From a virus (taxonomy: Duplodnaviria; Heunggongvirae; Uroviricota; Caudoviricetes): 27,620 nt of DNA. The notes beneath the pieces are model-generated. The model was given only the letters and a program-made list of their open reading frames with translations. It had not been told where the DNA came from and searched no databases. This document shows positions 2 through 18,856 of this stretch, piece by piece. Position numbers and translations under genes: made by a program. The stretch lies in IMG/VR virus record IMGVR_UViG_2506381017_000002. One strand, written 5' to 3'. How positions within the stretch are numbered: position 1 is the stretch's first letter; each line of letters begins with the position of its first letter.

Positions 2-1717
2 TATAACGATATGCTTTCGATGGCAATTAACTATGCTAGAGGTGCGCGTAATGAAGTTGGAGCTATTGATGTTAAATACAATGTATCTGTTGAATCTGAC
101 AAGATTGAAGTTCCTAACCTTACTCATAACCAAGAGTATGTACAGTCCTCAATTGCTTATCAGAAAGAAATGAATGAATTAAAGGCTGAGTACAACCGTT
201 TAATGGGCGAAGCTAATACTGCTGAACAAAAAGAAGCAATTAATTCTGAAATGATCTATAAGCAATTAGAACTCCAGGAAAAAGTTTACAAGTCCATGAT
301 TGAGGCCGATCAAAAGGCGATCAATGATTTACGTGAACAAGCTAAGAATCCAGATATGACTACTGAACAGCTTAAAACGATAACCGACCAAATTACAGAG
401 TATGAAAAAAATGTTATTGATGCCCAAAATAGCATTAAGGACGTTGTTAAGAATCGTTTTGAGTATGAAAAGTCTCTTATTGATAAGCAAATTGATGAGT
501 ATAAACGTGCCAGCGACACAATAAGTACTTTAGTAAGTATTGCTGATACCCTTCATTTAGAAGGTTCTACTCAAGCCGCTATTATAAATCAGCAATATGC
601 CTCCACTTACCGTGAGTACAATAATTACCTTGATTTACTCCAAAGACTTCGAAATGAATTATCTGGATACGAAAAGAATTCCTACGAATACAATCAATTG
701 AAGGCAATGATTGATGAATATCAAACTTCGCTTGATAGCACAATGTCTTCGCTTATGGATATAAGCAAAAATGAGTTTGGCCAGACTCTTGATTCCATTC
801 AAAAGGAATTTGAAAAGAGTGTTAACAAGGGAATGACCGCTGATCAGGCTAAGTTCGACCAAGATGTATGGTATAACCCCATGCAAAAAGAACTTCGCCT
901 TGAGGAAATGCGGTTAAAGATTGTTGAGTTGGAAGATAAGACGGTTGAAAAACGTATAGCTGCTCTCGACGCCCAAGAGAGAATGTCTAAGGCGGAAGCT
1001 GATTACGTTGACAAGCAACTTGATTTGGCACTTGCTCAACAAAAACTTGATAACACTATAAATAAAAAAGACGTCCGTTACCTTGAAAAAGATAAGGACG
1101 GCAAGTTTAACTGGACATACATTGCTGACCAAGCAAATGTAGAAGAGGCACAAAGAGCTGTCAACTCTGCAAAACAAGCTCTTGAAGAGTCAAAGATTTC
1201 CAATCGAAATGATTACATTCAAAAAGTCAGTGAAACTATTAATAGTATTAAAGACGGTTCGATTAATCAGGAAGAAGCTCGGAAACGTCTCGAACAGTTA
1301 AATGATTCATATAAGTTTATTCTTAAGGACATTCCTACTTTTGATATTGCAAAAGTTGAGGATGTCATCAAAGCCTACAATGACTATGAAAAGAAGAATA
1401 GCGACATATTAAATGATTACAAACGAAGCGTTAAGCCAGAGGTAACACAAGGCTATGAAACAATCGTTAAAGGATTTGGAGATCAGTTTAAAGCTGTATC
1501 AAAAGATCTAGGTGAGATTTTCGGAAAGCAGCTAAGAGAAGCTCTTAATCTACCAAGTGGCATTCGTAATGCATATGGTAATGGAAATGATAGATCATTA
1601 GTAATTAATGGTGGACTTACCATTAAGCTCCCTAATGTTAAAGACGCTGACGGTTTTACAGAAGCGATGAAGAATCTTCCCCAATTAGCTCAACAATACG
1701 CGACTAAGAAATTGTAA
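2..1717 (+). CDS. Tail tape measure protein, C-terminal part (5'-truncated by the window edge)
   Basis: Frame is open from base 2; long helical/coiled-coil sequence; C-terminal 'SLVINGGLTIKLPNVKDADGF..AM..L.Q.A.QY' ending typical of TMPs of large Firmicutes siphophages; lies directly upstream of tail genes. Confidence 0.8.
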   Translation, partial: YNDMLSMAINYARGARNEVGAIDVKYNVSVESDKIEVPNLTHNQEYVQSSIAYQKEMNELKAEYNRLMGEANTAEQKEAINSEMIYKQLELQEKVYKSMIEADQKAINDLREQAKNPDMTTEQLKTITDQITEYEKNVIDAQNSIKDVVKNRFEYEKSLIDKQIDEYKRASDTISTLVSIADTLHLEGSTQAAIINQQYASTYREYNNYLDLLQRLRNELSGYEKNSYEYNQLKAMIDEYQTSLDSTMSSLMDISKNEFGQTLDSIQKEFEKSVNKGMTADQAKFDQDVWYNPMQKELRLEEMRLKIVELEDKTVEKRIAALDAQERMSKAEADYVDKQLDLALAQQKLDNTINKKDVRYLEKDKDGKFNWTYIADQANVEEAQRAVNSAKQALEESKISNRNDYIQKVSETINSIKDGSINQEEARKRLEQLNDSYKFILKDIPTFDIAKVEDVIKAYNDYEKKNSDILNDYKRSVKPEVTQGYETIVKGFGDQFKAVSKDLGEIFGKQLREALNLPSGIRNAYGNGNDRSLVINGGLTIKLPNVKDADGFTEAMKNLPQLAQQYATKKL

Positions 1718-2430: not shown

Positions 2431-4062
2431 TTGACGCAACCAATACTAAATCAGGCGTCTAATTACGATGCGAAGAACTCATATACATTCACATTTACGT
2501 ATTTGGGCGCAGAGCATACGACAACGAATACATTATCAATTCGTGAAGATGGTCCAGGAACAAAACCTGTCTACGAAAAGGATCAAGTGTCGCTAGATAA
2601 AAACCACATTTTACCAGCAAAAACTCTGAACAATGGTACGGCATATCTAGCAAAAGTTCGCGTTAAACTCAAAGATGGCTATTCTGAGTGGTCACCAGAG
2701 ATTAAATTTACGTGTTATACAACACCACGAATTCTATTTGATACGATTGACCAACATCAATTTATCTATACGAATGATGTATTAATGTCGGCTATTTATA
2801 CGCAAGCACAAAATGAGCCTGTTACGTCATATCAATATACTCTTTACGATCAAAGACATGTTGCTTTAGTTAAATATCCAATTCGGAAGCCGGAAAGAAA
2901 TTCTCCAACAAGATTTTCAGAACGTGTTTCAAATATAAAAAAAGGTAAATTATATTACATTGGATTGAAGGTAGTAACAGAGCACGGAATTATTTATGAG
3001 CAACTTCAAGAATTTACCGCTCAATATATCACGCCATCTGTATCGGGTATTATTCAGCCAACAATGAATAAAGATGACGGACAAATAGTTGTTGACCTTT
3101 TCCTAAAACAATTGTTAGGAACGTCAGCTCGTGCTTACATTCCTCATCGTAAAAATGATAATGCTGATAACTATACATATTGGAAAGATGATTATGTCTT
3201 TGTCCCAAAAGAAAACCCTTTGATTTATACCAAGTTAGCGATGGCGAAAGCGAGTGATTGGATCGGAAAGTTCTGGGTAATGAATGTTCAGAATGGATTA
3301 TTCCTAGACTTCTCGCCAGCCGAAGATAGAGGACAGCATATAAAGTTCTATAAACATGATGATTATATTACCTGTGAAAAAGAATTTGGACAGATTAAAT
3401 CCAGAACACGGTCTAATGTAATTAAGGATTTAAAACTGCGTCCTTTCTATATGTTTGTATATGTTAAGGAATATCGAGTTGAAATAAAGATAGTTCCTGA
3501 TCAGACATTCAAAGATGATGATTGGAATGAAGAGTTATCCAAAGAAGAATTGTCTCAGTACGGTGAAATAACTAAAGAAACTCAACAAATGATAGATGCA
3601 GCAGAAGCGAAAATTAACGCTGCAAGACAAAGGCTTCAACAAATCCACGATGAACATTGGCAACAATACATCACCAAGGTAGAGCAAGCAATATCAGACG
3701 CTAGAGCACGTATTTTAGGGCAAAATGAACTACGCGATCGAGTGATGGAAATTGACGACCAATATTGGGACTACTTTGAAAATACTGAAATGGTCAACTA
3801 CTGGAAAGAATTAGCAAAGGCGGAACGTGAGTCCGAAGCCAAGTATGAAATCTATCGTACCGAATATGAGCAAAGAATTAATGAAACTTTATCAGAAATT
3901 AAAAGTGGTGCTATGACGCTTGATGATGGACGTTTGAAGTTAACTCAATATAGCCTTGTGTATAGCTTTATTTTACGTGAAGTCATTGATTTTAACGATA
4001 CGAAGCTAACATTAGATGGACTTCAAGAGCTCTACGATGAATATTTACAAAAATATAAATAG
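2431..4062 (+). CDS. Tail-tip structural protein (N-terminal FN3/Ig-like beta domains, C-terminal TMP-like helical segment)
   Basis: Start revised from 2368 to TTG 2431 (AAAGGAG SD 9 nt upstream), giving 543 aa; 'LNNGTAYLAKVRVK...YSEWS' is an FN3-like signature; position right after the TMP. Confidence 0.7.
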   Translation: MTQPILNQASNYDAKNSYTFTFTYLGAEHTTTNTLSIREDGPGTKPVYEKDQVSLDKNHILPAKTLNNGTAYLAKVRVKLKDGYSEWSPEIKFTCYTTPRILFDTIDQHQFIYTNDVLMSAIYTQAQNEPVTSYQYTLYDQRHVALVKYPIRKPERNSPTRFSERVSNIKKGKLYYIGLKVVTEHGIIYEQLQEFTAQYITPSVSGIIQPTMNKDDGQIVVDLFLKQLLGTSARAYIPHRKNDNADNYTYWKDDYVFVPKENPLIYTKLAMAKASDWIGKFWVMNVQNGLFLDFSPAEDRGQHIKFYKHDDYITCEKEFGQIKSRTRSNVIKDLKLRPFYMFVYVKEYRVEIKIVPDQTFKDDDWNEELSKEELSQYGEITKETQQMIDAAEAKINAARQRLQQIHDEHWQQYITKVEQAISDARARILGQNELRDRVMEIDDQYWDYFENTEMVNYWKELAKAERESEAKYEIYRTEYEQRINETLSEIKSGAMTLDDGRLKLTQYSLVYSFILREVIDFNDTKLTLDGLQELYDEYLQKYK

Positions 4063-4079
4063 TAAAGAGGTGAGAGTTT

Positions 4080-5120
4080 TTGATTATAGGTGTCGATTAT
4101 TTTAATTATGGATTTGACCAACAATTTTATGATACTCCTATTCCAACTTCTGAGATTGACGAGGTTATGATGGGGGCCGGAATGTATGATGAAATGTTCA
4201 TTAGTGTGGATACAACTTTAGATGATTCACAAACCAAACCAGCTCAATGGAATCTGAAAACTATTATGGACGCTAAGTTCAATAATTCTCTTGAAGCTGG
4301 GAGTATTGACGGAGCTGGTCATATTGTCACCAAAATACAATGTTATCGTCGAGAATACATGAGCACGAATACGGATTGGCAATTAGTAGCGCAATTTGAT
4401 TATGATGACCATTATAACCTTTATACGGTAGTTGATAGATTCATTGAAAATGGCAAAACATATGAATATGCAGTTGTTCCATTAGCCAATGAAATTCAAG
4501 GTGACTTACAAGTTGGCCCACCAATTGATAGCAAGTTTTATGGCTCCTTTATTTCTAATCTAGGTTCGAATTATTCAATGAACATCGACTTCAAGTTCTC
4601 GGATTTAGTTTGGAATTCTAACACGAGTACCAGTGTGCCGCTTAATGGTCAATATCCAATAGTGACGTTTGGAAATGCAAACTATCGAACTGGTACAGTT
4701 TCGTTCTTACCACTTACTCCGCAACAAGAATTTGGTTATGAAAACGAAATTGATCCACACGCCGAATACATTAATAGAACTAATGTTATTGACTTCCTTA
4801 ATGATGGACAAACAAAGGTAATTCGTCGTGAAGATGGAGATATTATTGTTTGTGCAACACATAATATTAAAACTACTCCGAAAGATGAAAGTCTTGAAGC
4901 TATTTCTACGGTAACATTTGATTTCACTGAAATAGGTAAATTAGATTACAACACCATGGAAAAAGCGGGATTAATTGCTGATGCAGGTAAATCTGTCTAC
5001 ACATACGATGAAGATGGGAATATTAAGTGGAATCAGGAATATATTGCTGAAGATGGTTCTATTCAATCTAGAACTAGATATAGAAATTCATTCTTATATG
5101 AACGAGACAATTTAAAGTAA
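4080..5120 (+). CDS. Tail-tip / distal-tail-type structural protein
   Basis: TTG start with GAGGTG SD; FN3-like 'VVDRFIENGKTYEYAVVP'; synteny within the tail module. Confidence 0.6.
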   Translation: MIIGVDYFNYGFDQQFYDTPIPTSEIDEVMMGAGMYDEMFISVDTTLDDSQTKPAQWNLKTIMDAKFNNSLEAGSIDGAGHIVTKIQCYRREYMSTNTDWQLVAQFDYDDHYNLYTVVDRFIENGKTYEYAVVPLANEIQGDLQVGPPIDSKFYGSFISNLGSNYSMNIDFKFSDLVWNSNTSTSVPLNGQYPIVTFGNANYRTGTVSFLPLTPQQEFGYENEIDPHAEYINRTNVIDFLNDGQTKVIRREDGDIIVCATHNIKTTPKDESLEAISTVTFDFTEIGKLDYNTMEKAGLIADAGKSVYTYDEDGNIKWNQEYIAEDGSIQSRTRYRNSFLYERDNLK

Positions 5121-5132
5121 GAGGGATAAAGT

Positions 5133-7229
5133 ATGCCACTGAAATACAAAAAGCCCAATTACAATGAAACGTTATCGAATATTGTAAATGGACTTGAAGA
5201 AAAAGTAAGTGGTCGAGCAGCAAGTGTTTTACGACAACCAATTCGCAACCTTCAAACAACTATTCAAGTGTTGGATAATGATGGCTCCATAATTGATACT
5301 ATTACTGGAAAAACAACTGGTGGAACTATTAATTATGATGCAACTTCATTGATACGACGAACGGGAACTTTGAAGATGGTTGTTGATCCTTCATATATGC
5401 CAAACAACAAAAGTGTTTTTTGGTTCGATAAGAAGTTTAGAGTCTATCAAGGAGTTGTTGATTTATCTCGTTTCCCCAGAGAGGCAGTTAACTTTTTGCT
5501 AGGAACGTTTTGGGTTAACGAATCCTCTCTACGTTTTGATAAAACAACACGTGAAATATCAGTTACATTAGCTGACAAAATGACCTTATGGGACGGCCAA
5601 GGACTAGAAAATAAACTCAAAATAAAGCGTGGAACTCCTATGAGTGATGCTATTAGGGGAATCATGGAATTAGTGGGAGAAACAGATTTTGGGTATATGT
5701 ACACCAGTAATGGTGAAGAAATACTTCAGTACGATTACGAAAAGGAACCGGGAACTTCAATCAATGATATCATTGAAGACTTTCGTGATATGTACATGGA
5801 TTTTATCTGTGGATATAATTCTCTTGGTCAATTTGAGTATCGGAAGTTGCCTATTCAAAAGGAAGAAGAAATTCCTAAGCCTAAATGGGAATTTGATGCA
5901 ACTTCACAAGATAGAGCAGATCTCACCTTATCATTTCAAGAAAGCTACGACTTAAAGAATGTTAAGAACAGATTTGTTGTTATTGGGTCCACATCAACCA
6001 AAACAGGCTATACACCTAAAGGTTCAGTAAAAATTACTGATACAAATAGCGAGTTTAATATAGATGCTATCGGAACTAGAACAAAAGTTATCCAAAATAG
6101 TGATCTAACAAATGATCTACAGTGTGTATCTCAAGCACGATATGAAATGTGGAAAGCTGCACACTTCCAAGAAAAAGTAAGCATTGATGTTTCTCCAGTT
6201 TACTTCTTGCAACCCAATGATATTATTCTGGTCACCAATCCTGTAACAAAAAAAGTATATCAGTACATGATTGATACTATTCAAATTGACTTAGCTGTCG
6301 ATGGAATTATGTCAATTGACGCTCATAAAATGTACTTTGTTAAGCCGGATTATGGTGAGGCAGATATGCCAATTGTGGCGGCTATCAAAAATGGTATCAA
6401 TAAATTAGGCTGGTTGTCACTTCCAGAAGAAAGAATTAAGGATACGTATGGTATTTCCGCCGATGGAAAGAATTACTTGAGTATACGATTCGTCGTTGAT
6501 GAAGAAGGTGGATGGCAAGCAGAAACAACTGCGTATAACACTTCCAGAAATCAAACACTAGAAATCGACCTTCGAGATTTTGAAAAGCTCAATCTTAAGG
6601 ATGAAAATGGTGACGTTGGTAGATCTAAAGGTGATTATGCAGATCGTGTACTCGGACATGAAATGTTTCATGCAGTATGTAACGATTTCTATGGTGCTGT
6701 TAAAACGATGGATATGCCTGTGTGGTTCAAAGAAGGCTTTGCGGAATTGCTTCATGGTGGAAAAGATCGTTATGTAACGATAACGGGATTTGAAAACAGG
6801 GAAGCTAAGAAGCAAGCATTAATTAAGCGAGCTAGAAACCAACTAAACGGAACATGGGAGAGTACATCAGATGACTATGTAGCCGCGTATCTTATTGCTT
6901 GTGCTATGTATTATTTGGCTGGAGACTTAAAAGGTATTCATGACATGTTTCAGCGACTAGAAAAAGAAAGTAACTTAAATTTGAACTTTCTGTACAAAGC
7001 ATTACCTATTACTGAATCGGCAGGTCAAATCTTCGATAAGGTAATTGATGAAATGCAAAAGATGCCAATTTGGGATTTCTTAAATGACCCCACAGATGTA
7101 GACACATGTTCTATTGGTGGAAATCATATGCTTAATCTATATGGCAGACCGCTTAGTCCAGAAGATGTGTTTAACAATCAGACGGCAACAACTGATTCAT
7201 TAGGATTCAAAATTAAGTTTGACGAGTAG
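5133..7229 (+). CDS. Tail hub/endopeptidase-like protein fused to a C-terminal flagellinolysin-like zinc metallopeptidase (gluzincin)
   Basis: N-terminal ~400 aa resembles phage tail-hub proteins (TRT-type 'RRTGTL', 'LADKM', 'GYNSLGQFEY'); C-terminal domain has H509-EMF-H513 plus E534 in 'PVWFKEGFAELLHGG'. Confidence 0.75.
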   Translation: MPLKYKKPNYNETLSNIVNGLEEKVSGRAASVLRQPIRNLQTTIQVLDNDGSIIDTITGKTTGGTINYDATSLIRRTGTLKMVVDPSYMPNNKSVFWFDKKFRVYQGVVDLSRFPREAVNFLLGTFWVNESSLRFDKTTREISVTLADKMTLWDGQGLENKLKIKRGTPMSDAIRGIMELVGETDFGYMYTSNGEEILQYDYEKEPGTSINDIIEDFRDMYMDFICGYNSLGQFEYRKLPIQKEEEIPKPKWEFDATSQDRADLTLSFQESYDLKNVKNRFVVIGSTSTKTGYTPKGSVKITDTNSEFNIDAIGTRTKVIQNSDLTNDLQCVSQARYEMWKAAHFQEKVSIDVSPVYFLQPNDIILVTNPVTKKVYQYMIDTIQIDLAVDGIMSIDAHKMYFVKPDYGEADMPIVAAIKNGINKLGWLSLPEERIKDTYGISADGKNYLSIRFVVDEEGGWQAETTAYNTSRNQTLEIDLRDFEKLNLKDENGDVGRSKGDYADRVLGHEMFHAVCNDFYGAVKTMDMPVWFKEGFAELLHGGKDRYVTITGFENREAKKQALIKRARNQLNGTWESTSDDYVAAYLIACAMYYLAGDLKGIHDMFQRLEKESNLNLNFLYKALPITESAGQIFDKVIDEMQKMPIWDFLNDPTDVDTCSIGGNHMLNLYGRPLSPEDVFNNQTATTDSLGFKIKFDE

Positions 7230-7276
7230 ATTTTATTGAGGAGGACATTAATACATATGAGAGGAAGTTGTATTAA

Positions 7277-8011
7277 ATGTCGAGATCTACTTTTCCGCAA
7301 AAGATAGATGTATTTAGAGAATTATTTGATCTTCCGGCAAATCAAGTTGCAAATGCACTAGAATTGCAGAGATTAAAACAAAAGACAACACTAACAAATG
7401 ATGAACAAAACCAAATTTCCGCATTAAGCGCCCAACTACAAGATTATATGATTACGCCTGAAACCATGAATAAACTTCAGGACGCAATTGTAGAAATCGA
7501 AACATTCTTTGATGGGAATGTAAGAAAGTACATCCTTGAAAAGCAGAAAGAATGGGATACCTATGTCAATGATTTTGATTATATAGGCGAATGGGACGCA
7601 ACGAAGAAATTTAAGAAACATAATCTTATAACATATCAAGGTGCATTATATATTGTTACAAAAGATGTGGTAGCGGATAGGCAACATACACCAGATAATG
7701 ATTCCGATCATTATCGGCCTGCATCTAGTAAGGGTGACAAAGGTGATATAGGATTAAATGCTATTTTTAAGGGTGAATGGAATGGAGCAACTAGCTATAA
7801 GGCTGGTGATGCCGTGTCTGTTCGTGAAGGTCAAAGTTGGCGCCCATTAGATTTAGTATTTATTGCTAAAAAAGATAATCAAGGTCAAAAGCCAACAATA
7901 GGCGCTGCAAGCGATTATTGGTTCCCATATCATAATTTAATTGTTGTTCCTAAAGAATATGCTAACTATAAATTTCATCCAGATATTCATCGAATCCAGA
8001 TAGTTGATTAG
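7277..8011 (+). CDS. Baseplate/tail-fibre adaptor with two short carbohydrate-binding-like beta repeats
   Basis: 'YIGEWDATKKFKKHNLITYQGALY' and 'FKGEWNGATSYKAGDAV' repeats; 'MSRSTFP..ID.F' N-terminus recalled from large Firmicutes phage tail genes. Confidence 0.55.
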   Translation: MSRSTFPQKIDVFRELFDLPANQVANALELQRLKQKTTLTNDEQNQISALSAQLQDYMITPETMNKLQDAIVEIETFFDGNVRKYILEKQKEWDTYVNDFDYIGEWDATKKFKKHNLITYQGALYIVTKDVVADRQHTPDNDSDHYRPASSKGDKGDIGLNAIFKGEWNGATSYKAGDAVSVREGQSWRPLDLVFIAKKDNQGQKPTIGAASDYWFPYHNLIVVPKEYANYKFHPDIHRIQIVD

Positions 8012-8021
8012 AGGTGGGAGA

Positions 8022-8411
8022 ATGGAAGTTAGCGAACAACAAAAAGGATTATTAGAAGCCATGCGAACAATAGCTCAGCATGAAGCACAACGTAATTCAG
8101 GACCACAGTTTCAAACAGGTGTCGTGGTGGAAGATCCTGCTGGATATAAATGTATTGTCAGAGTGAATGATACCGAAAAAACATGTACTTTGCCAGAACA
8201 TTTGCATGATTGGGTAAGCAAAGACGATATAGTTCAAATTTGCGATATGTATGGAAATGGTGCTGAGCTAATTGTCACTGGATCTTCTGGATCAACAAGA
8301 AAGAAAACATTGGTTGTTAACGATGAAGATAAAGATAAGTTAACTGGTGGCGTTACTAAATTTGCAGATGATAGTGGAAATTTAACCGATAATACACTAA
8401 CGCTAGAGTAG
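8022..8411 (+). CDS. Small structural protein, OB-fold-like
   Basis: Start revised to ATG 8022 (GAGGTGGGAG upstream), giving 129 aa; 'TGVVVEDPAGYKCIVRVN...VSKDDIVQI' beta pattern; synteny. Confidence 0.5.
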   Translation: MEVSEQQKGLLEAMRTIAQHEAQRNSGPQFQTGVVVEDPAGYKCIVRVNDTEKTCTLPEHLHDWVSKDDIVQICDMYGNGAELIVTGSSGSTRKKTLVVNDEDKDKLTGGVTKFADDSGNLTDNTLTLE

Positions 8412-8425
8412 AGAGAAGGTATTAA

Positions 8426-9781
8426 ATGGCTGTAAAGAGAGCAAAATATTTAGTTGCAGATGATGAATATCATTTCGTAACGGACGACAAGGCTCTTAGA
8501 GTCCTAGATTCAAATAATAATGAAATTGGAACGTTTAGAGAATTAGGCTTTGAGGGAAAGCTAATCACAAGCGGTGATTATAGAGACATAAAACATACTG
8601 GAGTATACCGAATCAAAGGAGTAGGAGGTTTACCCGGAAACATTCCAGGAGACAAGGAATCCATTCTGACAGTTACATCGATTGGTGATCAGGGTAATCC
8701 AGAATTAACCTTTTATAAGGTAATTAGTCCTAACGGAGTAATTTTAGAAAATACTGTCTCACGGAGTAATCAGTCTGGATGGGGATCTGGTGGTGTTGAT
8801 TTACGAAATACCATTACAAGTATTAACAATATTATTGGTGATATTTCAAAACTTCAGACAGATTCCAAGAATATGACTGGGGCAATTAATGAGTTAAATT
8901 CCAAAATAAATAATGTATCTGGCAACTCGCAAAGTGGGTTGGAAGACTTAAAAAAAGATAGTAACAATAGATATTTGTTCAAATGGGGAGATACAGTCAA
9001 CGGTGACCTTTCAGTTAAGTTTGGGGCAAAATACAAACTTCGAGGTAAGAATGGTCACGACTACAATTTAGCTTCTATTGACGATAACAATAATATCCAT
9101 ATTGGCGATGCAGATACCAATTTACAGTTTTGGGGTAATGATAATCCTACTTTTAATGGTAAAAAGATATTCACAGAAGCTAATGTAGGTAGTGGATCGG
9201 GGTTAGATGCTGATAAGCTTGATGGAATTGATAGTTCAGGTTTCTTAAAGACTAATAGCGATGATACTAAATATAGTGGTCTTCGCATGGATAAACGGAA
9301 CATTCACTTCAATATCAAAGATGGCGAAAATACAGAAACAGGCTTAGTTTTTGATAAGAATAATAAGTGGACTGCTAAAGTTGTTGCAACCGATATTGGT
9401 GATGTCCATATTCAAACAGGTGGTAAAGAGTATAAATATCCTCCATTTACGTTCAATCAAGATCGTAATTTTGTTCAATATGGTGGTATGCACGTTATTC
9501 GAGCCAATGAGCCACAAATTAATTTTCAGACATTTGATGAAAAAACTGGAAACTTTGATAAAGGAGTAGGGTTTTTCAAGCCAACATGGGATCAAGGATC
9601 ATTAGCTGTTGGTAACTGGAATACTAGTGAGGTTGTTGCGCAATTTGCCGTTGGTACTAATCATGAAGCGGTTAAGCTCAATCATTCTCCTTATATTGGT
9701 GATCATAATAGACGGTTATTCTTGCAAGACGAACAGCCTAGTGGTGACGTTCCTGTTGGATCAGTTTGGATTGGTATTTAG
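8426..9781 (+). CDS. Tail fibre / receptor-binding protein
   Basis: Knob-like 'DYRDIKHTGVYRI', 'LQTDSKNMTGAINEL' and 'GSGSGLDADKLDGIDSSGF' fibre motifs; C-terminal 'QPSGDVPVGSVWI'. Confidence 0.7.
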   Translation: MAVKRAKYLVADDEYHFVTDDKALRVLDSNNNEIGTFRELGFEGKLITSGDYRDIKHTGVYRIKGVGGLPGNIPGDKESILTVTSIGDQGNPELTFYKVISPNGVILENTVSRSNQSGWGSGGVDLRNTITSINNIIGDISKLQTDSKNMTGAINELNSKINNVSGNSQSGLEDLKKDSNNRYLFKWGDTVNGDLSVKFGAKYKLRGKNGHDYNLASIDDNNNIHIGDADTNLQFWGNDNPTFNGKKIFTEANVGSGSGLDADKLDGIDSSGFLKTNSDDTKYSGLRMDKRNIHFNIKDGENTETGLVFDKNNKWTAKVVATDIGDVHIQTGGKEYKYPPFTFNQDRNFVQYGGMHVIRANEPQINFQTFDEKTGNFDKGVGFFKPTWDQGSLAVGNWNTSEVVAQFAVGTNHEAVKLNHSPYIGDHNRRLFLQDEQPSGDVPVGSVWIGI

Positions 9782-10546: not shown

Positions 10547-12055
10547 ATGGGAAAAAGACGAACACCTGAACAGTATGTTGAAGATGTTAAAGCGATACAT
10601 GGCGAAAAATATACAATTACTACACCTTTCATCAATATGAAGACAAAAGTAATGGTTTTATGTAATGATTGTGGTCATGAATGGTTAGTAGAGCCAAGCA
10701 GTCTCTTGAAAGGTTATGGTTGTCGCAAATGTGGTATACAAAATAGAAAACCTCGAAAAACAAATGACGAATTCTGTTCTCAAGTAAAGAATTTATGGGG
10801 AAATGAATATGTGTTTCTAGATAACTATGTTAATGCAACAACCAAAATTAGGTGTCTTCATTCTATATGTGGCACTATTTGGAAGGTTACTCCTAAGAGT
10901 TTTCTTCATAATAAAAAGGGTGGTTGTCCAACTTGTGCTTATGGTAAATCTCAGCAAGAATTCACAAAAGAAATAAAGAATCTAGTTGGGGACGAATATT
11001 CTTTCATAGAAACGTATATAGGAGACGGTTCTAAAATCCTATGTCGTCACAATATTTGTGGATATGAATGGAAAACTAAACCCAACACATTCTTAAATGG
11101 AAGTAGGTGTCCAAACTGCTTCGGTTCAAAAAGAAAAAGCACAATTCAATTTCAAAATGAGCTCGATCAACTTTATCCGGGAGAGTATGAAGTTTTAGGT
11201 GAATATAAAACTGCACATACCAAAATAAAGGTTCGTCATGTTCCCTGCGACTATACCTGGGAGATTAAGCCTAATGCAATATTGATTAAAAAGAGATGTC
11301 CGAGGTGTTCTATGCGAAAACAAGTTGTACGACAAACTAGACCGTATGACGATTTTGTGCGAGAGGTACATCAAAAATATGGCAACGCTTATATTGTAGA
11401 TAATTATCAAGGGCGTCATAAAAAACTTAAGGTGACTCATAAAGAATGTGGTTATTTATGGGAAACATATGGAAGTACTTTGCTCTCGGGCGTTGGGTGC
11501 CCTCGTTGTGCAGGCATCATAAAAACATCAGACGACTTTATAGCTCAGTTATCGGCATTGGTAGGGAGGGAGTATAGAGTAGTAGGCGAGTATTCAAAGA
11601 TGAGTGAAAAAGTAAAAATAAAACACGAAAAATGTGGTTATTTATGGCAAGTTACTCCGATGAATTTTATACGTGGAACCAGATGTCCAAGATGTAGAAA
11701 ATCCCACGGGGAATTAGCTATTGAAGCTTGGCTAAATAGTAAAAACTATGGCTATATTCCTCAGAAGAAATTTGCAGACTGTAAAGATCAGCGTTCACTC
11801 CCATTTGATTTTTATCTTCCCGATTATAATTTGGTCATTGAGTATGATGGAAGACAGCATTTTCAGAGTTGCGATTATTTTGGTGGAGAGGAAAAATTTA
11901 ATCTCCAACACAAACATGATTTAATCAAAAACAAATACTGCGAAGATAATAATATTAATCTATTACGTATTCCGTACACTGTTACCGGAGAAGATATCGG
12001 CAGGGCAATTCAGAACAGATTAGATGAATTAACACAACTCGATAACGTTGCTTAA
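10547..12055 (+). CDS. Free-standing endonuclease: six Zn-ribbon repeats + Vsr/DUF559-like PD-(D/E)XK domain (homing endonuclease-like)
   Basis: Six ~62-70 aa repeats with (H/C)xxC-G-x-x-W...CxxC; C-terminal 'LPFDFYLPDYNLVIEYDGRQH'. Confidence 0.8.
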   Translation: MGKRRTPEQYVEDVKAIHGEKYTITTPFINMKTKVMVLCNDCGHEWLVEPSSLLKGYGCRKCGIQNRKPRKTNDEFCSQVKNLWGNEYVFLDNYVNATTKIRCLHSICGTIWKVTPKSFLHNKKGGCPTCAYGKSQQEFTKEIKNLVGDEYSFIETYIGDGSKILCRHNICGYEWKTKPNTFLNGSRCPNCFGSKRKSTIQFQNELDQLYPGEYEVLGEYKTAHTKIKVRHVPCDYTWEIKPNAILIKKRCPRCSMRKQVVRQTRPYDDFVREVHQKYGNAYIVDNYQGRHKKLKVTHKECGYLWETYGSTLLSGVGCPRCAGIIKTSDDFIAQLSALVGREYRVVGEYSKMSEKVKIKHEKCGYLWQVTPMNFIRGTRCPRCRKSHGELAIEAWLNSKNYGYIPQKKFADCKDQRSLPFDFYLPDYNLVIEYDGRQHFQSCDYFGGEEKFNLQHKHDLIKNKYCEDNNINLLRIPYTVTGEDIGRAIQNRLDELTQLDNVA

Positions 12056-12125: not shown

Positions 12126-13424
12126 TTGCTTAATAAATTTCTAAAGAAGATGTTAATGGTAGCAGTAACTATCATTATGGTTGCCCCTGTATTAGCAGGG
12201 GTCGCAAGTGCCGATGGAAGATCATATGGACCAGACCTATCCAAATATCAAGGTGCATATGCCAGCAAGCCGTATACGCGTGACCAATTCGCAATTGCAC
12301 AAGTTGGTGGATACGTAAATGGTTATTTCTATGACCAATGGACATATCCAACACAAATTAGTTCAGGTATTGCTAATGGGTTGAGAATGCACACTTATAT
12401 TTGGTATCAAGTTGGTGGAAATGCTCAATTGGGGAAGCAGGTTGTAGATCATTTTCTACCAAAGATCCAAGCGCCTAAGGGGTCGATCATTGCATTAGAT
12501 TATGAAGATGGAGCATCTTGGGACAAGAATGCTAACACAGAAGCCATTTTAGCAGGTATGCGTGAAATTAAGGCGGCAGGATACGTTCCAATGTATTACA
12601 GTTATAAGCCGTACACCTTGGCTCACGTTGACTATAATCGTATTATTGCTGAATTCCCTAACTCTGGATGGATTGCAGCATACCCAGATTACAATGTTCG
12701 TACAGAACCATACTGGGGTGTATTCCCTTCACTTCCAGGAATTAGTATCTACCAATTTACAAGCACATATCGTGCTGGTGGTTTAGACGGTAATATTTCA
12801 TTAGCACCTAATGGTCATGACATTACTATGAGCGGTTACGTCAATGGGAATTCACAAAAGCCAAAGACCGAAACTCCTGCAACGGAACAAGGTAAGCAAA
12901 TTCATAAAGATACTCATAACTACACTGTAAAGCCAAATGATAGCTGGTGGGCAATAGCAAATCGTTATGGCATGGAAATGAACGCTTTAGCACAACTGAA
13001 TGGCAAGACCATCAATGATGTAATTCACCCAGGTCAAGTTATTCGTGTTGCTGATAAAGGAGATGGTCAATCTGTTTCAAACAAGGTTAACACCACCCCC
13101 GCACAACCATCAAATAATACTCAATACTACACTGTACAACCAAATGATACGCTCTCAGGTATCGCTACAAAATTTGGGACAACATATCAATCAATCGCAT
13201 TCCTTAACAGAATTGATAATCCAAATTGGATTTATCCTGGTCAGCGACTAAAAATTAATAGGGCGACTCAAAATAACAGTTCTAACAGAGTACACTATGT
13301 GCGTTACGGTGAAACACTAAGCGGCTTGAGTTATTCTCTTGGAGTTAATTACCAGACACTGTTAAGCAAAAATAATATAGCTAATCCTAATTTTATTCGT
13401 GTAGGTCAGGCCATTTACTACTAA
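12126..13424 (+). CDS. Endolysin: signal peptide + GH25 muramidase + 3 LysM
   Basis: TTG start with GGGAG SD; KK + hydrophobic stretch + 'ASA|D' cleavage motif; GH25 motifs 'PDLSKYQG', 'ALDYEDG', 'GLDGN'; three LysM repeats (YTVKPNDSWWAIA, YTVQPNDTLSGIA, HYVRYGETLSGLS). Confidence 0.92.
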   Translation: MLNKFLKKMLMVAVTIIMVAPVLAGVASADGRSYGPDLSKYQGAYASKPYTRDQFAIAQVGGYVNGYFYDQWTYPTQISSGIANGLRMHTYIWYQVGGNAQLGKQVVDHFLPKIQAPKGSIIALDYEDGASWDKNANTEAILAGMREIKAAGYVPMYYSYKPYTLAHVDYNRIIAEFPNSGWIAAYPDYNVRTEPYWGVFPSLPGISIYQFTSTYRAGGLDGNISLAPNGHDITMSGYVNGNSQKPKTETPATEQGKQIHKDTHNYTVKPNDSWWAIANRYGMEMNALAQLNGKTINDVIHPGQVIRVADKGDGQSVSNKVNTTPAQPSNNTQYYTVQPNDTLSGIATKFGTTYQSIAFLNRIDNPNWIYPGQRLKINRATQNNSSNRVHYVRYGETLSGLSYSLGVNYQTLLSKNNIANPNFIRVGQAIYY

Positions 13425-13446: not shown

Positions 13447-14247
13447 ATGAAAGAAATTTGGAAAGATATAGAAGAATTTGAGGGATATTATCAAATCTCT
13501 AATTTGGGACAAGTTAAAAGTATGGATAGAGATGTTATTTATAGCAATGGGGTTATTCGACATTACGAAGAAAGAATTAGGACCCCAGTAACAGATAAGA
13601 ATGGATATTTGATGGTAACGTTAAATAAAAGTTCTAAAAGTTATCCTAAAAGAGTACATCAGCTTGTTGCCAGAGCGTTTATTCCCAATCCAGATAATTT
13701 ACCATCAATTAATCATATTGACGAAGATAAGACAAACAATCGAGTGGATAATTTAGAATGGTGTTCGGTTTACTATAACAATCATTATAATGGTAGATAT
13801 GAACGAATAAAGCGCTATCCCAAGTCGGTTTGCTTGTTTAATGTTGTAAATGGTGAGGTAATAAAAATCGAGTCTATATCTGAGGCTGCTCGTAGGCTGC
13901 ACGGGTCCGCCGGAAATATTGAAGAAGTGATAGATGCAAAAGGAAGGACTTTTAAGGGGTGGATGATATTTTCTGAACGCAATTTTAATGGCTTAGCTAT
14001 TAAACAGAGTTTGGAGGAATATAATAAACATCGCCCTAGGGGTATTGTCGTTGAATTTATTGACACCGAAGATAAAAGGTTCTATGCGACCGAAAATGAA
14101 TTCTGTCACGAATATAATGAGCATCCAGGTAGCATAAACACGTATTTAAGAAATAACAGAGATGTATTCAAAAATAAATACGTTATACGATACGCTCTCC
14201 CATTTGAGGAGTCTAAATATCAAAATGGGCAGTTGCTAGATTATTGA
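13447..14247 (+). CDS. NUMOD4-HNH homing endonuclease
   Basis: NUMOD4 'EIWKDIEEFEGYYQISNLGQVKS'; HNH 'VHQLVARAF...INHIDEDKTNNRVDNLEWC'; NUMOD1-like 'SISEAARRL'. Confidence 0.9.
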   Translation: MKEIWKDIEEFEGYYQISNLGQVKSMDRDVIYSNGVIRHYEERIRTPVTDKNGYLMVTLNKSSKSYPKRVHQLVARAFIPNPDNLPSINHIDEDKTNNRVDNLEWCSVYYNNHYNGRYERIKRYPKSVCLFNVVNGEVIKIESISEAARRLHGSAGNIEEVIDAKGRTFKGWMIFSERNFNGLAIKQSLEEYNKHRPRGIVVEFIDTEDKRFYATENEFCHEYNEHPGSINTYLRNNRDVFKNKYVIRYALPFEESKYQNGQLLDY

Positions 14248-14424: not shown

Positions 14425-17400
14425 ATGAGATATTTAACAACATATCTTGACGATGAAATTAATTTCAAGTTTGGCAATAATGGCTCAATCATTGAGTTGA
14501 AAGCTGTTGATGACCATGCGGTTATGAGTTTCTCAAACGAAGAAAAACTCCTCATTCGTATTAAGAATGAGGAATCATATATCAAAACGGTGCCCGTTAC
14601 TGCCGAACGTAAGATTATTCAACTCCCTACCAAGTTATTAAAAGACCTAACGGTAGGTCAGTACGATGTTGAGTTATGGCAAGGCGAAGGTGACGATCAA
14701 GTTATCTATCCTGACGAAGGATTCCTTAGATTAAAGATTCATGGCAACGCATCACAAATTGATGGTAGCTTGGTTTCTTCTATTACTCTTGCTGATTTTG
14801 AAAAGAAGTTTAATGAACTAGCTCAAAAGATTGAGGATAAATTAGAGAAATTACCAGATATCGATGGGAAGAATATTAGCATCGATGTGAAAGTAGTTGA
14901 TGGCAACCTTTGTATTAACGGCAAAGATACAGGAATTAACCTAACTGCCAAGGATGGTAGGGACGGAAGAGATGGACATACGCCAGAAATCACTGTATCA
15001 GATGCAGGTACACTTGTTGTTGATGGAATTGACACTAATAAATCTTTAATCGGTCCTAGAGGTGAGAATGGACTTCCGGGTAAGGATGGAGTTGCTGGTC
15101 AAGATGGTAAATCTGCCTATCAAGTAGCTGTCGATAATGGGTTTGATGGGACAGAAGTCGAATGGTTACGCTCATTGCATGGAAATGATGGCCTTGATGG
15201 AAAGTCAGGTAGAGACGGACTTCCAGGACAGAGTGGTAAATCTGCCTATGAGATAGCTATCGCAAACGGGTTTATGGGAACTGAAACTGAATGGCTAGAA
15301 TCCCTCAAAGGTAAGGATGGGCGAGATGGTAATGACGCTAATGTCGATTTATCTGAATTCTTAACTAAAGAAACTGCGAATTCAGAATATGCTAAAAAGA
15401 ATGATGTTCCTCTTATCGTATATGATGCAGAAAACAATACTCTAACTATCAATGGTCAAAAGGTAGAAATACCTTCTCAAGTAGATTTGTCTAGTTATGT
15501 TACCAAGACTGATGCAGATAAATATGCTTTAAAATCTGATGTAAAGAATATTGTCCTTGATAAAAATGAAAGAACTTTAACTGTTGGAAAAGAATCAATT
15601 AATATTCCTAATAATATTGACCTTTCTCCTTATTACACTAAAGAAGAAATTGATAAGAAGTTAACTGACATTGCGACAAATGGAAAGGTTGACCTTACTG
15701 GTTATCTTAGACAGAGTGATTTAACGGATTACGCTAAGAAATCAGATATCCCAAGTCAACCAGACCTTACTCCATATGCTAAAAAGTCAGAGCTACCCAA
15801 GATTTCAATAGACGTTGAGAAACGAACGCTTACTTTAAACGATAGTGTTATCAATATTCCAGATAGTGTTGACTTAACTGACTATGCTAAAAAATCAGAA
15901 ATTCCAAGTATCGTATTAGACACGGAAACTAATACCCTAACCATTAACGGAACAAAAGTAGTTATTCCAGGTAATGTTGACCTCACTCATTACTACACTA
16001 AAGGAGAAATTGATGAAAAAATAGCTGATATTCAATCTGGCGGAAAAATTGATTTAAGTAATTATGTCAATAAGCAAGAACTTTCTGATTATGCTAAGAA
16101 AGCAGATATTCCTGAAACGCCTGACTTAACTCCTTATGAGACTAAAGAGAATGCAGATAAGACTTATGCTACTAAGAAAGCGTTGGAAGATATTCAACTC
16201 ACTCCCGGAAAAGATGGGAAGAATGGTAAGTCTGCTTATGATTTGGCGGTAGAAGCTGGTTTTGAGGGTAGCGTAGACGAATGGTTACAATCACTACATG
16301 GAGCCAATGGTAAAGATGGCCGAGACGGAGCTAATGGTCATGATGGAGCCAAAGGTCAGGACGGACAAAACGGTAAGAGTGCCTATGAGATCGCCATTGC
16401 TAATGGTTTTAAAGGAACGGAAGAAGAATGGCTCAATTCTCTTAAAGGTCGTGATGGTTCCAATGGAGCCTCTGGACGAAACGGGGCTGATGGAAAGAAC
16501 GGAGTAGACGGATTAAGCGCTTATGAATTAGCTAAAAAGAACGGATTCCAAGGAACTGAGCAAGAATGGTTAGGTTCACTTAAAGGTGAACAAGGACATG
16601 ATGGTATTCAGGGCCCTAAAGGAGATGCTGGTGAAAGAGGCCCACAAGGGTTCCCGGGGAAGGATGGATCAGATGGTAAGGATGGCGCTCAAGGGCCAGC
16701 TGGGGCTAACGGAAAAGATGGTCAATCCACATACCAATTATGGCTATCCAAAGGAAATACTGGTAGCGAAGAGGACTTCTTAAACTCTCTTAAGGGTGCT
16801 AAAGGAGACCAAGGTGCCCCTGGTAAAGATGGTGCTCCTGGGGTTAAAGGTGATACCGGAGAAAGAGGGCCTCAAGGGGAACGTGGAGAAACTGGTTTAC
16901 AAGGTCCTGCTGGTCCTAAAGGAGATATTGGTAATGTTGGCCCACAAGGCCCTAAAGGAGATAAAGGTGATACAGGTCCACAAGGACCTAAAGGGAATAC
17001 AGGGGATCGAGGTCCACAAGGTGTAGCAGGAAAAGATGGTCATTCTGTTTGGTATAATAGAATGCACTATAGTCCTAACGGACAACTACAGTGGTTTACA
17101 GATTTGACTAACGCAAGTGCTTCTAACCCACCTAAAGTTAATGATATTATGATTAATGCTGACGGTAATATTGCAATGATTACTAAGGTCAATATTACTA
17201 ATGATGCAGGTGAAGGTGGAGGAACGTTTAACTATGGTCCTTGGATTGGTAACATCAAGGGTCCCACTGGCCCTCAAGGTCCACAAGGATTAAATGGGAA
17301 AGATGGACTTTCAGCTTATGAGATTGCTAAACGAAATGGATTCACTGGAACTGAAAAAGAATGGTCGGACTCTTTACAGAATCAAAGTTTTAATAAAACG

Positions 17401-18852
17401 ACTATAAATAAAATATTTGATAAATACTCAAATAAGTTTCATATCAATATGCCAGATAATGGTTTCCTAAATGATGTGCAAGGGGCATTCTATCGCAATG
17501 GTATATGGCATATGTATTTCCTGTATAATGCTGACGCAAAATATAACTCAAATGGCGACCAAATAGGTGGAAATGGAACTGAATGGTACCATGTTACCAC
17601 GAAAGATTGGGTGAAATGGAATTATGAAGGTGTCGCAATTCATAAATACAAAACCGCCTGGGGAGACGTTGCTTCTGGAACTATTTATATTGATTTTGAT
17701 AATCGTTTTGGCAAAGGTAAAGACGCAGTTATTGTATTTGCTACAGCCTATGGCGGTGACAAGGGTCAGAATGTAATGGGGTATTACTCAACAGATAACG
17801 GTTACACATTTAGTCCATTGCAGACAGATCCAATTCTTCGACATGTCGGTGGATCAGATACCAATTTCAGAGATCCATACTTATTTAGAATGGGAGATAC
17901 ATGGGTTATATACATGGCTGAGGGAGATAAATTTGGAATTTATACTTCAAACAATCCTCTGTCTGGATATAACTATATTGATGGCTATTTTGCGCCACAC
18001 GCATTGTTAGAATGTCCATCGCTGTTTAAGTTAAATGTAAATGGAAATCAAAATAATCAAAAATGGGTATTATTCTATGGGGGTAATGGTGGAGATGATG
18101 CTACTACGGGAACTTATGCTTCTGTAGGGTATTTAACAGATAAATATGCATTCAAAGCTGAGCAGGAAAATATTCGTGTTGATTATGGTCCCGATTTTTA
18201 CGGTGCAAAAATGTTTTCAAATGAATTTGGCAATAATGATTTCGTATATAGCAATGCATGGATGGGTAATTGGGGATATGCTACCAAAGTTCCAAATGAG
18301 GGCAGAATTGGGGCGATATCTTCAACAAGAAAGATAACATTGAGGCATGACGGAGTAAAGTATTGTTTAAATAATGAAATTGTCGGAGTATTTCCTGATT
18401 ACCTTGATAATCCGATTGTGGGTACAAATCTAAAAACTAATACAGGGCTACCTATGTTTAAAGGCGACAGTTTTTATTTGAAATTTAGAATTAAAGATGT
18501 TCAAAATTTAAATGAAAACATGACGATTAAATTAGTTGGGAATCAATACGATTCTGATATGTTGTTTAACTTTAAGGATAATAATGTTAAAGTTCATCGA
18601 TATAATAGCTCTTTTAATAATAATATCTATGGTAGAGACAGAATATTTAGCACCAATCTTGATAAAGAAAATGATTTGTGGATTGAATTGCTTGTTGACC
18701 GAACTTGTATAGAAATGCGCTTATCTAATGGCGATATTTTTACAATGACAAAATTCCCTGCTGGACGGAGTAGAGAAAATATATGTGTTAGCGCAGATAA
18801 CACAGTCAATTTCGATTATGAATATTATCAAATAATGCCACAAGAGGTGTAG
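14425..18852 (+). CDS. Collagen-like fibre with BppU-like N-terminus and C-terminal GH32 levanase (LevB-like)
   Basis: N-terminal 'YDVELWQG..DQVIYPDEGF' BppU_N-like motif; G-X-Y runs; GH32 motifs ND1017VQ, RD1150P, E1196CP; segments 'GNGTEW', 'EGVAI.KY', 'YSTD.G..F', 'MAEG.K' match B. subtilis LevB as recalled. Confidence 0.85.
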   Translation: MRYLTTYLDDEINFKFGNNGSIIELKAVDDHAVMSFSNEEKLLIRIKNEESYIKTVPVTAERKIIQLPTKLLKDLTVGQYDVELWQGEGDDQVIYPDEGFLRLKIHGNASQIDGSLVSSITLADFEKKFNELAQKIEDKLEKLPDIDGKNISIDVKVVDGNLCINGKDTGINLTAKDGRDGRDGHTPEITVSDAGTLVVDGIDTNKSLIGPRGENGLPGKDGVAGQDGKSAYQVAVDNGFDGTEVEWLRSLHGNDGLDGKSGRDGLPGQSGKSAYEIAIANGFMGTETEWLESLKGKDGRDGNDANVDLSEFLTKETANSEYAKKNDVPLIVYDAENNTLTINGQKVEIPSQVDLSSYVTKTDADKYALKSDVKNIVLDKNERTLTVGKESINIPNNIDLSPYYTKEEIDKKLTDIATNGKVDLTGYLRQSDLTDYAKKSDIPSQPDLTPYAKKSELPKISIDVEKRTLTLNDSVINIPDSVDLTDYAKKSEIPSIVLDTETNTLTINGTKVVIPGNVDLTHYYTKGEIDEKIADIQSGGKIDLSNYVNKQELSDYAKKADIPETPDLTPYETKENADKTYATKKALEDIQLTPGKDGKNGKSAYDLAVEAGFEGSVDEWLQSLHGANGKDGRDGANGHDGAKGQDGQNGKSAYEIAIANGFKGTEEEWLNSLKGRDGSNGASGRNGADGKNGVDGLSAYELAKKNGFQGTEQEWLGSLKGEQGHDGIQGPKGDAGERGPQGFPGKDGSDGKDGAQGPAGANGKDGQSTYQLWLSKGNTGSEEDFLNSLKGAKGDQGAPGKDGAPGVKGDTGERGPQGERGETGLQGPAGPKGDIGNVGPQGPKGDKGDTGPQGPKGNTGDRGPQGVAGKDGHSVWYNRMHYSPNGQLQWFTDLTNASASNPPKVNDIMINADGNIAMITKVNITNDAGEGGGTFNYGPWIGNIKGPTGPQGPQGLNGKDGLSAYEIAKRNGFTGTEKEWSDSLQNQSFNKTTINKIFDKYSNKFHINMPDNGFLNDVQGAFYRNGIWHMYFLYNADAKYNSNGDQIGGNGTEWYHVTTKDWVKWNYEGVAIHKYKTAWGDVASGTIYIDFDNRFGKGKDAVIVFATAYGGDKGQNVMGYYSTDNGYTFSPLQTDPILRHVGGSDTNFRDPYLFRMGDTWVIYMAEGDKFGIYTSNNPLSGYNYIDGYFAPHALLECPSLFKLNVNGNQNNQKWVLFYGGNGGDDATTGTYASVGYLTDKYAFKAEQENIRVDYGPDFYGAKMFSNEFGNNDFVYSNAWMGNWGYATKVPNEGRIGAISSTRKITLRHDGVKYCLNNEIVGVFPDYLDNPIVGTNLKTNTGLPMFKGDSFYLKFRIKDVQNLNENMTIKLVGNQYDSDMLFNFKDNNVKVHRYNSSFNNNIYGRDRIFSTNLDKENDLWIELLVDRTCIEMRLSNGDIFTMTKFPAGRSRENICVSADNTVNFDYEYYQIMPQEV
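15106..17379 (+). repeat. Seven copies of a ~26-aa 'G(K/L/Q)SAY..A..NGF.GTE.EWL.SL.G' module interleaved with collagen G-X-Y tracts
   Basis: Counted in the translation; longest uninterrupted collagen run is 27 triplets at 16795-17040. Confidence 0.85.
15343..16190 (+). repeat. Tandemly duplicated 'LTING..V.IP..VDL..Y.TK / DLT.YAKKSDIP' shaft modules
   Basis: Four '(I/V).D....LT(I/V/L)...I.IP..(V/I)DL' units and two 'YYTK.EID.K..DI...GK.DL..Y' units in the translation. Confidence 0.75.
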
Positions 18853-18856
18853 ATAA

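Follow-up and report, generated by a model that had tools for sequence, protein, structure and literature searches.

How does a protein-cutting domain known from bacterial flagella come to sit at the tip of a phage tail, and what might it cut there? The question is raised by one gene in a stretch of 27,620 nucleotides (nt), referred to here as the window, from a tailed virus of the Caudoviricetes (IMG/VR record IMGVR_UViG_2506381017_000002). The gene encodes a protein of 698 amino acids (aa), P0001, in which a predicted tail hub is followed by a flagellinolysin-type metallopeptidase. The fusion between the two is old and stable, and is conserved under purifying selection in the phage tail module. 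Its parts, all on the plus strand, are the following.

5133..7229, plus strand: the whole gene, a Tal-like (tail-associated-lysin-like) tail hub fused to an M101 protease (P0001), 698 aa (open reading frame (ORF) list, translation).

5133..6347, plus strand: the N-terminal hub domain, aa 1-405, with a predicted gp27 / Mu gp44 / VgrG / Tal fold (AlphaFold2 (AF2), Foldseek).

6348..7226, plus strand: the C-terminal flagellinolysin-type (M101) gluzincin metallopeptidase domain, aa 406-698 (NF033876, alignment, AF2).

6567..6578, plus strand: D479-L-R-D482 in the 'IDLxDF' block, a putative Ca2+-site Asp (spacing and alignment only).

6657..6671, plus strand: the HEMFH zinc-binding and catalytic motif, H509, E510 and H513 (motif scan, alignment).

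6732..6743, plus strand: E534-G-F-A537, the third zinc ligand, Glu, and the 'basement' Ala (motif scan, alignment).

An earlier account of this DNA, made from its letters alone (the sequence-only reading), had called the region from nt 6363, which corresponds to aa 411, a flagellinolysin-like protease. The motifs it quoted are all present where it placed them, by translation and motif scan: GWLS begins at residue 426, ADG at 443, LEIDL at 476, YADRVLGHE at 502, TSDDY at 578 and DTCSIGG at 657. From the composition of P0001 itself, 0.004 HExxH motifs would be expected by chance. The codon for E534 occupies nt 6732-6734, and the segment PVWFKEGFAELLHGGKDR, which begins at aa 529, spans both E534 and A537 (motif scan). 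These two residues sit in WFKEGFAE, the ExxA context of the family. Their counterparts in the flagellinolysin FliA(H) of Clostridium haemolyticum are the third ligand E262 and the basement residue A265, and the Ca-site residue of that enzyme is D206 (PMC5595980). D482 of P0001 precedes H509 by 27 residues, the same spacing as Asp206 of FliA(H) (PMC5595980), and the IDLxDF block is kept in most flagellin-borne domains; D482 is therefore listed as a putative Ca2+-site Asp.

Several searches place the domain in its family. The NCBIfam model NF033876 'flagellinolysin' covers aa 418-696 of P0001 through profile positions 45-318 of 384, and its E-value of 2.1e-36 puts the match far above chance. The score, 126.2 bits, lies under the curated equivalog cut-off of 205 bits, as is expected of a protein that lacks the flagellin flanks. 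An exhaustive phmmer search with the protease domain against 1.84 billion representatives returned 207 matches. About a dozen ~700-aa proteins with the domain at ~411-700 make up the top group, followed by proteins of ~550-600 aa in which the domain begins near residue 150. Among ten later matches that were sampled, eight are flagellins by Pfam (seven with Flagellin_N and Flagellin_C, one with Flagellin_N alone) and two are non-flagellar; matches to flagellins reach E 1.7e-19. When the 258 proteins collected were sorted with hidden Markov models (HMMs) of our own, 118 proved to be of the tail type, 113 of the flagellin type and 27 of other kinds. In a 37-sequence alignment (A1), tail-borne and flagellin-borne domains are homologous over the full domain length, and H509, E510, H513, W531, E534, G535, G542, Y582, Y586 and G663 are invariant across both groups. 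Identity between the P0001 domain and the 17 flagellin-type and other non-tail domains in A1 is 24-29%, rising to ~40% over local phmmer matches. The C-terminal domain of P0001 is thus confirmed as a complete flagellinolysin-type (M101) gluzincin with its catalytic residues intact.

Flagellinolysins constitute MEROPS family M101 and are, by experiment, Zn- and Ca-dependent endopeptidases that degrade casein and flagellin (PMC5595980, PMC7643111). With FliA(H) and with HgrFlaMP of Hylemonella gracilis, P0001 has in common the whole catalytic domain of ~290 aa, including the blocks GWL..AE..I...YGL, IDLxDF, DR..AHEMxHA, WFxEGxAE..HGxDxR, Y...Y and DTGSIGG. It differs from them in where the domain is carried. 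In P0001 this is the C-terminus of the hub, rather than an insertion between the D0/D1 helices of a flagellin; and the protein would be borne on a virion, presumably in three copies, rather than polymerised in a type III-exported filament. Flagellin_N and Flagellin_C are absent from P0001 at E<=1 in Pfam, HMMs built from the N- and C-terminal flagellin regions of the flagellin matches found nothing among the tail-type proteins (0/118), and the arrangement in which the protease is inserted between Flagellin_N and Flagellin_C is not found in P0001. The name flagellinolysin in its strict sense is rejected for P0001, since the flagellin scaffold is missing and the score does not reach the equivalog cut-off. 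Neither Pfam, NCBIfam nor PHROG gave a match in P0001 to M23, CHAP/NlpC or a lysozyme-like peptidoglycan hydrolase. The Pfam model Peptidase_M9 (PF01752) stays below its gathering score (12.6 bits against 26, E 0.083), and comparison with PDB sequences, by phmmer for the protease domain and by profile for the N-domain, yielded rows at chance level only.

The predicted fold agrees with the family assignment. An AF2 model built from alignment A1 has a mean predicted local distance difference test score (pLDDT) of 95.1 and a predicted template modelling (TM) score (pTM) of 0.93. Among AlphaFold clusters, Foldseek ranks at the top a 698-aa unnamed protein (TM 0.84) and a 614-aa unnamed protein (residues 141-436, TM 0.85), together with a 'Flagellin' of 1,101 aa (TM 0.82) and a record labelled 'Flagellinolysin' (TM 0.76, E 5.5e-12). 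Against the PDB, the peptidase domain of ColH ranks first, weakly (E 0.03). Re-alignment with VIA gives Z 12.9 for ColH (4ar1), 12.3 for ColT (4ar8) and 11.9 for ColG (2y6i); the clostridial collagenase peptidase domains as a set score 11.4-12.9, at a root-mean-square deviation of 3.6-3.9 Å over ~225 residues. Lower scores are obtained for M30 lugdulysin (Z 11.2), the Vibrio collagenases (~11.1) and the M1 aminopeptidases (~10). BFVD viral structures contain no match to the protease domain at E<=0.001. FliA(H) has the same collagenase structural neighbourhood, and the same template family (PMC5595980). The M9B collagenases ColH, ColT and ColG are thus the best match among solved structures, with which P0001 has in common the gluzincin fold and an HExxH motif with a downstream Glu; P0001 differs from them in having 10-13% identity and neither activator nor collagen-binding domains, and flagellinolysins do not cut collagen (PMC5595980). 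An assignment of P0001 to the M9 collagenases is rejected, PF01752 being sub-threshold and the likeness one of fold only. The sequence-only reading had named the flagellinolysin family, had seen no flagellin D0/D1 domains, and had proposed HMM and Foldseek comparisons as the check. Profile (NF033876, E 2.1e-36), exhaustive phmmer and fold (TM 0.76-0.85 to flagellinolysin and flagellin models in the AlphaFold database) now agree on the family, and Pfam and custom flagellin HMMs alike find no trace of D0/D1.

The other half of P0001 is predicted to be a hub. PHROG 1887 'tail protein' covers aa 23-398, and Pfam DUF5048, of which we found no mention in the literature searched, covers aa 306-400. 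An AF2 model of this domain from 20 homologs (mb5c53357038c) has a pLDDT of 81.5. In Foldseek against the PDB it matches known hubs at a probability of 1.00 and E 2.5e-16 to 1e-8, with ~350-400 of its 412 residues covered. The matches include the hubs of contractile injection systems, diffocin, Mu gp44, T4 gp27 and VgrG, as well as those of 80alpha, lactococcal phage p2 and the NF5 'tail-associated lysin', although identity to any solved hub is only ~8-14%. On the modelled fold, aa 1-405 are correctly described as a gp27-like baseplate hub, or Tal, domain, and the label 'tail-hub protein' given in the sequence-only reading fits both this fold and the place of the gene downstream of the tape measure gene. 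P0001 resembles Tal lysins and hubs (the TP901-1/Tuc2009 Tal with its M23 domain, the 80alpha Tal, p2 ORF16 and the NF5 Tal) and T4 gp27-gp5 in its gp27-like N-terminus, its position downstream of the tape measure gene and its enzymatic C-terminal extension. The enzymes known on such Tal proteins are M23, CHAP, NlpC or lysozyme domains; that of P0001 differs in being an MA-clan gluzincin.

Hub and protease travel together. About 115 homologs of ~700 aa are found in Lactobacillales-associated contigs, many of them 100-135 kb long, and word-based searches with the N-terminal or the C-terminal half recover the same ~700-aa proteins, down to ~35-42% identity. Named sources are Limosilactobacillus fermentum, L. 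reuteri, Liquorilactobacillus hordei, L. mali, Enterococcus mundtii, Vagococcus fluvialis and Dolosigranulum pigrum. Over 109 homologs, the identities of the two halves to P0001 are correlated at r = 0.95, with the protease half on average 2.5 points better conserved than the hub half. Every one of the 114 full-length homologs, down to ~35% identity, has kept HExxH and the downstream Glu. Counted over the tail homologs that cover each site, H509 and E510 occur in 115, H513 in 114, and D479 and D482 in 117/117; the position of A537 holds A, G or S. Three homologs (P0107, P0110 and P0111) retain only the first ~34-100 residues of the protease domain. Homologs of the N-domain that carry a different C-terminal enzyme were not found: all have the same ~700-aa architecture or are truncated gene calls. 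The 698-aa frame itself recurs at 99-100% identity in three independent records (G001, G002 and G267).

The protease domain occurs in 3 of 301 species-representative genomes of the host family, and it has no match in 50,697 deposited phage genomes (tblastn with the domain; megablast with window positions 4000-9000), a search from which near-identical records may have been kept out. The best hub relatives in those phage genomes have 22-26% identity over 81% of the N-domain; the nearest are gp36 of Thomasclavelia phage TR-TP1 and a tail protein of Geobacillus virus E3, with phage TR-TP2 a further relative, and all three genomes are 90-141 kb in size. TR-TP1 has the same synteny as P0001, with a giant TMP-like (tape-measure-protein-like) gene upstream, but its hub is of 386 aa, with no C-terminal protease. 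This bare hub marks the protease as an add-on to the hub type. The carrier is a long-tailed Lactobacillales phage lineage, of ~100-135 kb, with no close relative among deposited phage genomes. Five homologs (P0030, P0035, P0036, P0066 and P0070) are named 'flagellin' in public records, including ones from Limosilactobacillus reuteri and Enterococcus mundtii; on hub-proteases this name looks like an artefact of annotation that stems from the flagellinolysin domain.

The phylogeny of the domain was examined in two trees, a quick one of 124 rows and a careful one of 65, with 18 tail-borne domains included. Both are unrooted, there being no usable outgroup (identity to M9 is no more than 10-13%). 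Tail-borne domains group in a single clade, with support of 100 in the quick tree and 100/100 in the careful tree, and this clade is grouped with ten flagellin-borne domains at 98 and 100/93, respectively. The named members of the flagellin set are all Clostridia: Tepidibacter, Inconstantimicrobium, Clostridium oryzae, C. oceanicum and a clostridial metagenome-assembled genome. A sister relation of the tail clade to five clostridial flagellinolysins is weakly supported (74/40, careful tree). A short insert before DTGSIGG is common to basal tail forms and clostridial flagellinolysins, and has been lost in the group of 13 tree representatives to which P0001 belongs. A single fusion event is well supported. 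The tail clade occupies one side of a branch, and it is the position of the root that decides if it nests among the flagellins. Of the exchange between flagella and phage tails that the sequence-only reading had suggested, the shared origin stands, on the whole-domain alignment and on a tree that sets the tail domains, as one clade, beside clostridial flagellinolysins; the direction, like the nesting, depends on the root. Transfer to the phage from a flagellin or another clostridial source is favoured on breadth of diversity, the balance leaning that way by about two to one. It is conceivable, if rather doubtful, that the M101 root lies on the phage branch instead, that the tail hubs of Firmicutes phages were the first home of the domain, or its vehicle, and that flagellins obtained the domain from phages. 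Along with this goes the idea that the tail-tip enzyme is the first proteolytic tail 'depolymerase', one that strips host surface proteins, possibly including exclusion or receptor-masking proteins, rather than cutting peptidoglycan. Such a root would put a name to the 'undetermined' ancestral donor of flagellinolysin, and its broad lateral dispersal would be the work of phages.

M101 domains also occur outside flagellins and tails (P0140, P0204, P0212, P0214, P0226 and P0242). The 27 proteins of other kinds are partly fragments, and include RTX, collagen-plus-lectin and S-layer-like proteins. The contexts of these non-flagellar domains are RTX repeats, collagen with a legume lectin, and S-layer-like / CarboxypepD_reg architectures, and they are scattered inside the flagellin clades of the tree.

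The genes of the window run in series on the plus strand (ORF list), and those that bear on the tail and on the cell wall are as follows, TMP standing for tape measure protein, Dit for distal tail protein, CBM for carbohydrate-binding module and GH for glycoside hydrolase family.

2..1717, plus strand: the 3' end of the TMP gene (near-identical record G002, L003:12667-19962, minus strand).

4080..5120, plus strand: a conserved protein of 346 aa, phrog_27355, in a Dit-like position directly upstream of the hub (PHROG).

7277..8011, plus strand: the gene next after the hub, for a tail protein of 244 aa that contains a CBM5/12-like segment (PHROG 26419 'tail fiber'; sub-threshold CBM_5_12).

12126..13424, plus strand: a GH25 muramidase with three LysM repeats, an endolysin apart from the tail-tip enzyme.

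14425..18852, plus strand: a collagen-like tail fibre of 1,475 aa ending in GH32 (PF00251, collagen repeats, PHROG).

The TMP is 2,431 aa long when read from its ATG in the 96%-identical IMG/VR record G002 (L003:12667-19962, minus strand); the frame is open upstream to a TTG, which would give about 3,000 aa. Neither in L003 nor in the window does the TMP have a Pfam match. Between the TMP gene and the hub-protease lie three genes, of 173, 564 and 346 aa in that order. The position of the 346-aa protein is also filled in the 101-kb metagenomic contig L006 (318 aa) and in Thomasclavelia phage TR-TP1 (292 aa). Downstream of the hub come the 244-aa protein, several unknowns, the GH25-LysM endolysin, the GH32 fibre and then replication genes (primase-like, exonuclease, DNA polymerase and ligase). 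Gene order is the same in L006, which carries a relative with a protease domain 37% identical: an integrase, a 2,516-aa TMP with PF10145 PhageMin_Tail, two proteins, the hub-protease and a CBM5/12 protein, on to a GH25-LysM endolysin. At 0.145 nm of tail per TMP residue (PMC7838156), the size of the TMP would predict a tail at least about 350 nm long. Neither G001 nor G002 yielded a match to the sheath family PF04984, a pointer, if not proof, that the tail is likely long and non-contractile. In the fibre, PF00251 (Glyco_hydro_32N) matches aa 1009-1312 at E 3e-43, along with PHROG tail fibre and levanase families. The fibre is probably a virion polysaccharide depolymerase, and likely one for levan or inulin, suited to hosts that make fructan exopolysaccharides. 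GC content rises to a local peak of 0.45 at 16-17 kb, coinciding with its gene. Apart from the protease of P0001, no wall-degrading domain was detected in the TMP or the tail proteins scanned.

Some further features concern the element as a whole. Two HNH-type endonuclease genes flank the endolysin (10547-12055 and 13447-14247, plus strand), one with CapR and treble-clef domains and the other with NUMOD4 and HNH_3. In the bacterial genome G001 the region round the first is ~1.7 kb shorter and barely alignable, and the second is missing from G002; both genes appear to be presence/absence polymorphisms, which fits mobile homing endonucleases. G001 contains a matching element of ~105 kb in one block (C1:180855-286540), which opens on the left (~181 kb) with the replication genes and closes on the right (~286.5 kb) with the tail fibre. 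In the window, by comparison, the fibre is followed directly by the primase-like gene (across 18852-19514), so that the sequence derives from a circular or permuted form. Two copies of a 120-bp segment (window 18919-19038) lie beside the left end of the element in G001 and two more near 2.04 Mb, and integrase-like genes lie just upstream of the TMP. In two other species-representative genomes, G267 (C2:41112-41993) and G240 (C3:98424-99299), the hub-protease gene is on a small extra contig (2 or 3 of 3), off the main chromosome contig, and there the element may be maintained, or may assemble, as a replicon of its own. In its structural region G002 has another giant ORF (L004:5674-12786, minus strand), whose 2,370-aa product contains a CBM_4_9 carbohydrate-binding domain, and a holin-like gene nearby.

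What, then, might the protease do? At a probability of roughly 0.6, we read the gene as the tail-tip hub of a large, non-contractile-tailed Lactobacillales phage, with a protease that would act on host envelope proteins. By homology with other hubs, a trimer would cap the tail tube below the TMP, and three protease domains, dependent on Zn and probably on Ca, would be suspended from the far tip of the tail. A fructan polysaccharide layer would first be handled by the GH32 fibre, leaving the protease domains as the first enzymatic parts to arrive at the cell wall. There they would hydrolyse peptide bonds in the host envelope, most probably those of wall-associated or surface proteins, and this cleavage would clear a path for the tail tube and the TMP. 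The protease would take the slot that M23, CHAP or lysozyme domains occupy in other Gram-positive Tal proteins, and the GH25-LysM endolysin would act at lysis only. Proteins seem the likeliest substrates, at somewhat better than even odds, because the characterised members of the family are endopeptidases of broad specificity, similar to that of matrix metalloproteinases, which cut ordinary L-peptide bonds (PMC5595980). Four considerations weigh on the other side. The distant hub of TR-TP1 is bare and without enzyme, so the domain is not essential to the architecture of the tail. The C-terminal domain may point outward, or may plug the lumen of the hub. The named hosts (Limosilactobacillus, Liquorilactobacillus, Enterococcus, Vagococcus and Dolosigranulum) are not, to our knowledge, bearers of S-layers, which leaves the protein barrier unspecified and makes the S-layer the weakest of the substrates proposed. 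And the precedent for C-terminal enzymes on Tal proteins is hydrolysis of peptidoglycan, not of proteins.

That precedent has its own reading of the gene, the chief rival, as a gluzincin tail-associated lysin whose domain would be an endopeptidase for peptidoglycan, acting on stem peptides or cross-bridges and not on proteins. The domain is placed exactly as Tal lysin domains are, C-terminal to a gp27-like hub; the TMP and other tail proteins scanned have no M23, CHAP, NlpC or lysozyme domain, and the only muramidase found is the LysM endolysin. We nevertheless consider this unlikely, as P0001 has no match to known families of peptidoglycan peptidase, the bonds cut by characterised members are ordinary L-peptide bonds (PMC5595980), and we know of no M9- or M101-like gluzincin that cleaves peptidoglycan peptides containing D-amino acids. 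Smaller still is the chance that the protease works inside the virion, where it would process the TMP or the hub during tail assembly or DNA ejection. The hub would touch the C-terminal end of the ~2,400-aa TMP, and in other siphophages both TMPs and Tal proteins are known to mature by proteolysis. Recombinant flagellinolysin, moreover, appears to cleave itself (PMC7643111). Against such a role, the data give no evidence of cleavage sites, a broad endopeptidase beside structural proteins would need tight control, and relatives of this tail type manage without the domain. A mainly structural or receptor-binding domain, in which catalysis is irrelevant, would suit a tail whose separate CBM and GH32 proteins show a modular adhesion device, and Tal C-termini often carry binding modules; yet 114/114 full-length homologs retain the zinc ligands, the general base, the basement position and the putative Ca Asp, which makes it very improbable. 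Such conservation is not that of a decayed enzyme, and a decayed pseudo-enzyme is rejected. Virtually no weight, finally, attaches to a flagellin or an assembly chimera. NCBI does name several homologs 'flagellin', but P0001 has a phage hub at its N-terminus and neither Flagellin_N nor Flagellin_C, scores 126 bits against the 205 required, and recurs in the same frame in G001, G002, G267 and ~115 homologs; domain scans, hub fold and independent records together rule this out.

For a virion-borne enzyme that attacks proteins, as the preferred reading has it, baculovirus enhancin offers a parallel: an M60-like HExxH gluzincin of the virion that digests a protein barrier of the host and so gives the virus access to the cell. 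The analogy is functional only; enhancin belongs to another family and another host system, and the fold matches to baculovirus ORFs in BFVD are weak (E > 0.001). Tail-tip hubs of Gram-positive phages are not known to us to carry an MA-clan endopeptidase. Phages are not mentioned in two papers that characterise flagellinolysins or in the AnnoView preprint, and the titles and abstracts that matched a literature search for tail-associated lysins with metalloproteases include no gluzincin Tal.

If active on the virion, the enzyme would give phages a means of breaching the cell envelope beyond those now known, by proteolysis at the host surface, and would provide a compact, well-folded protease module for enzybiotic and anti-biofilm work on lactic acid bacteria, enterococci and their relatives. 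The misnaming of its homologs as 'flagellin' could produce false reports of flagella in non-motile species. For the family, M101 gains a large, monophyletic, non-flagellar branch beside the scattered RTX, collagen-lectin and S-layer-like contexts, and this branch bears directly on the origin of the flagellin insert, a question posed in PMC5595980. A cutting domain of bacterial flagella is also found, it would seem, on a virus's device for piercing cells.

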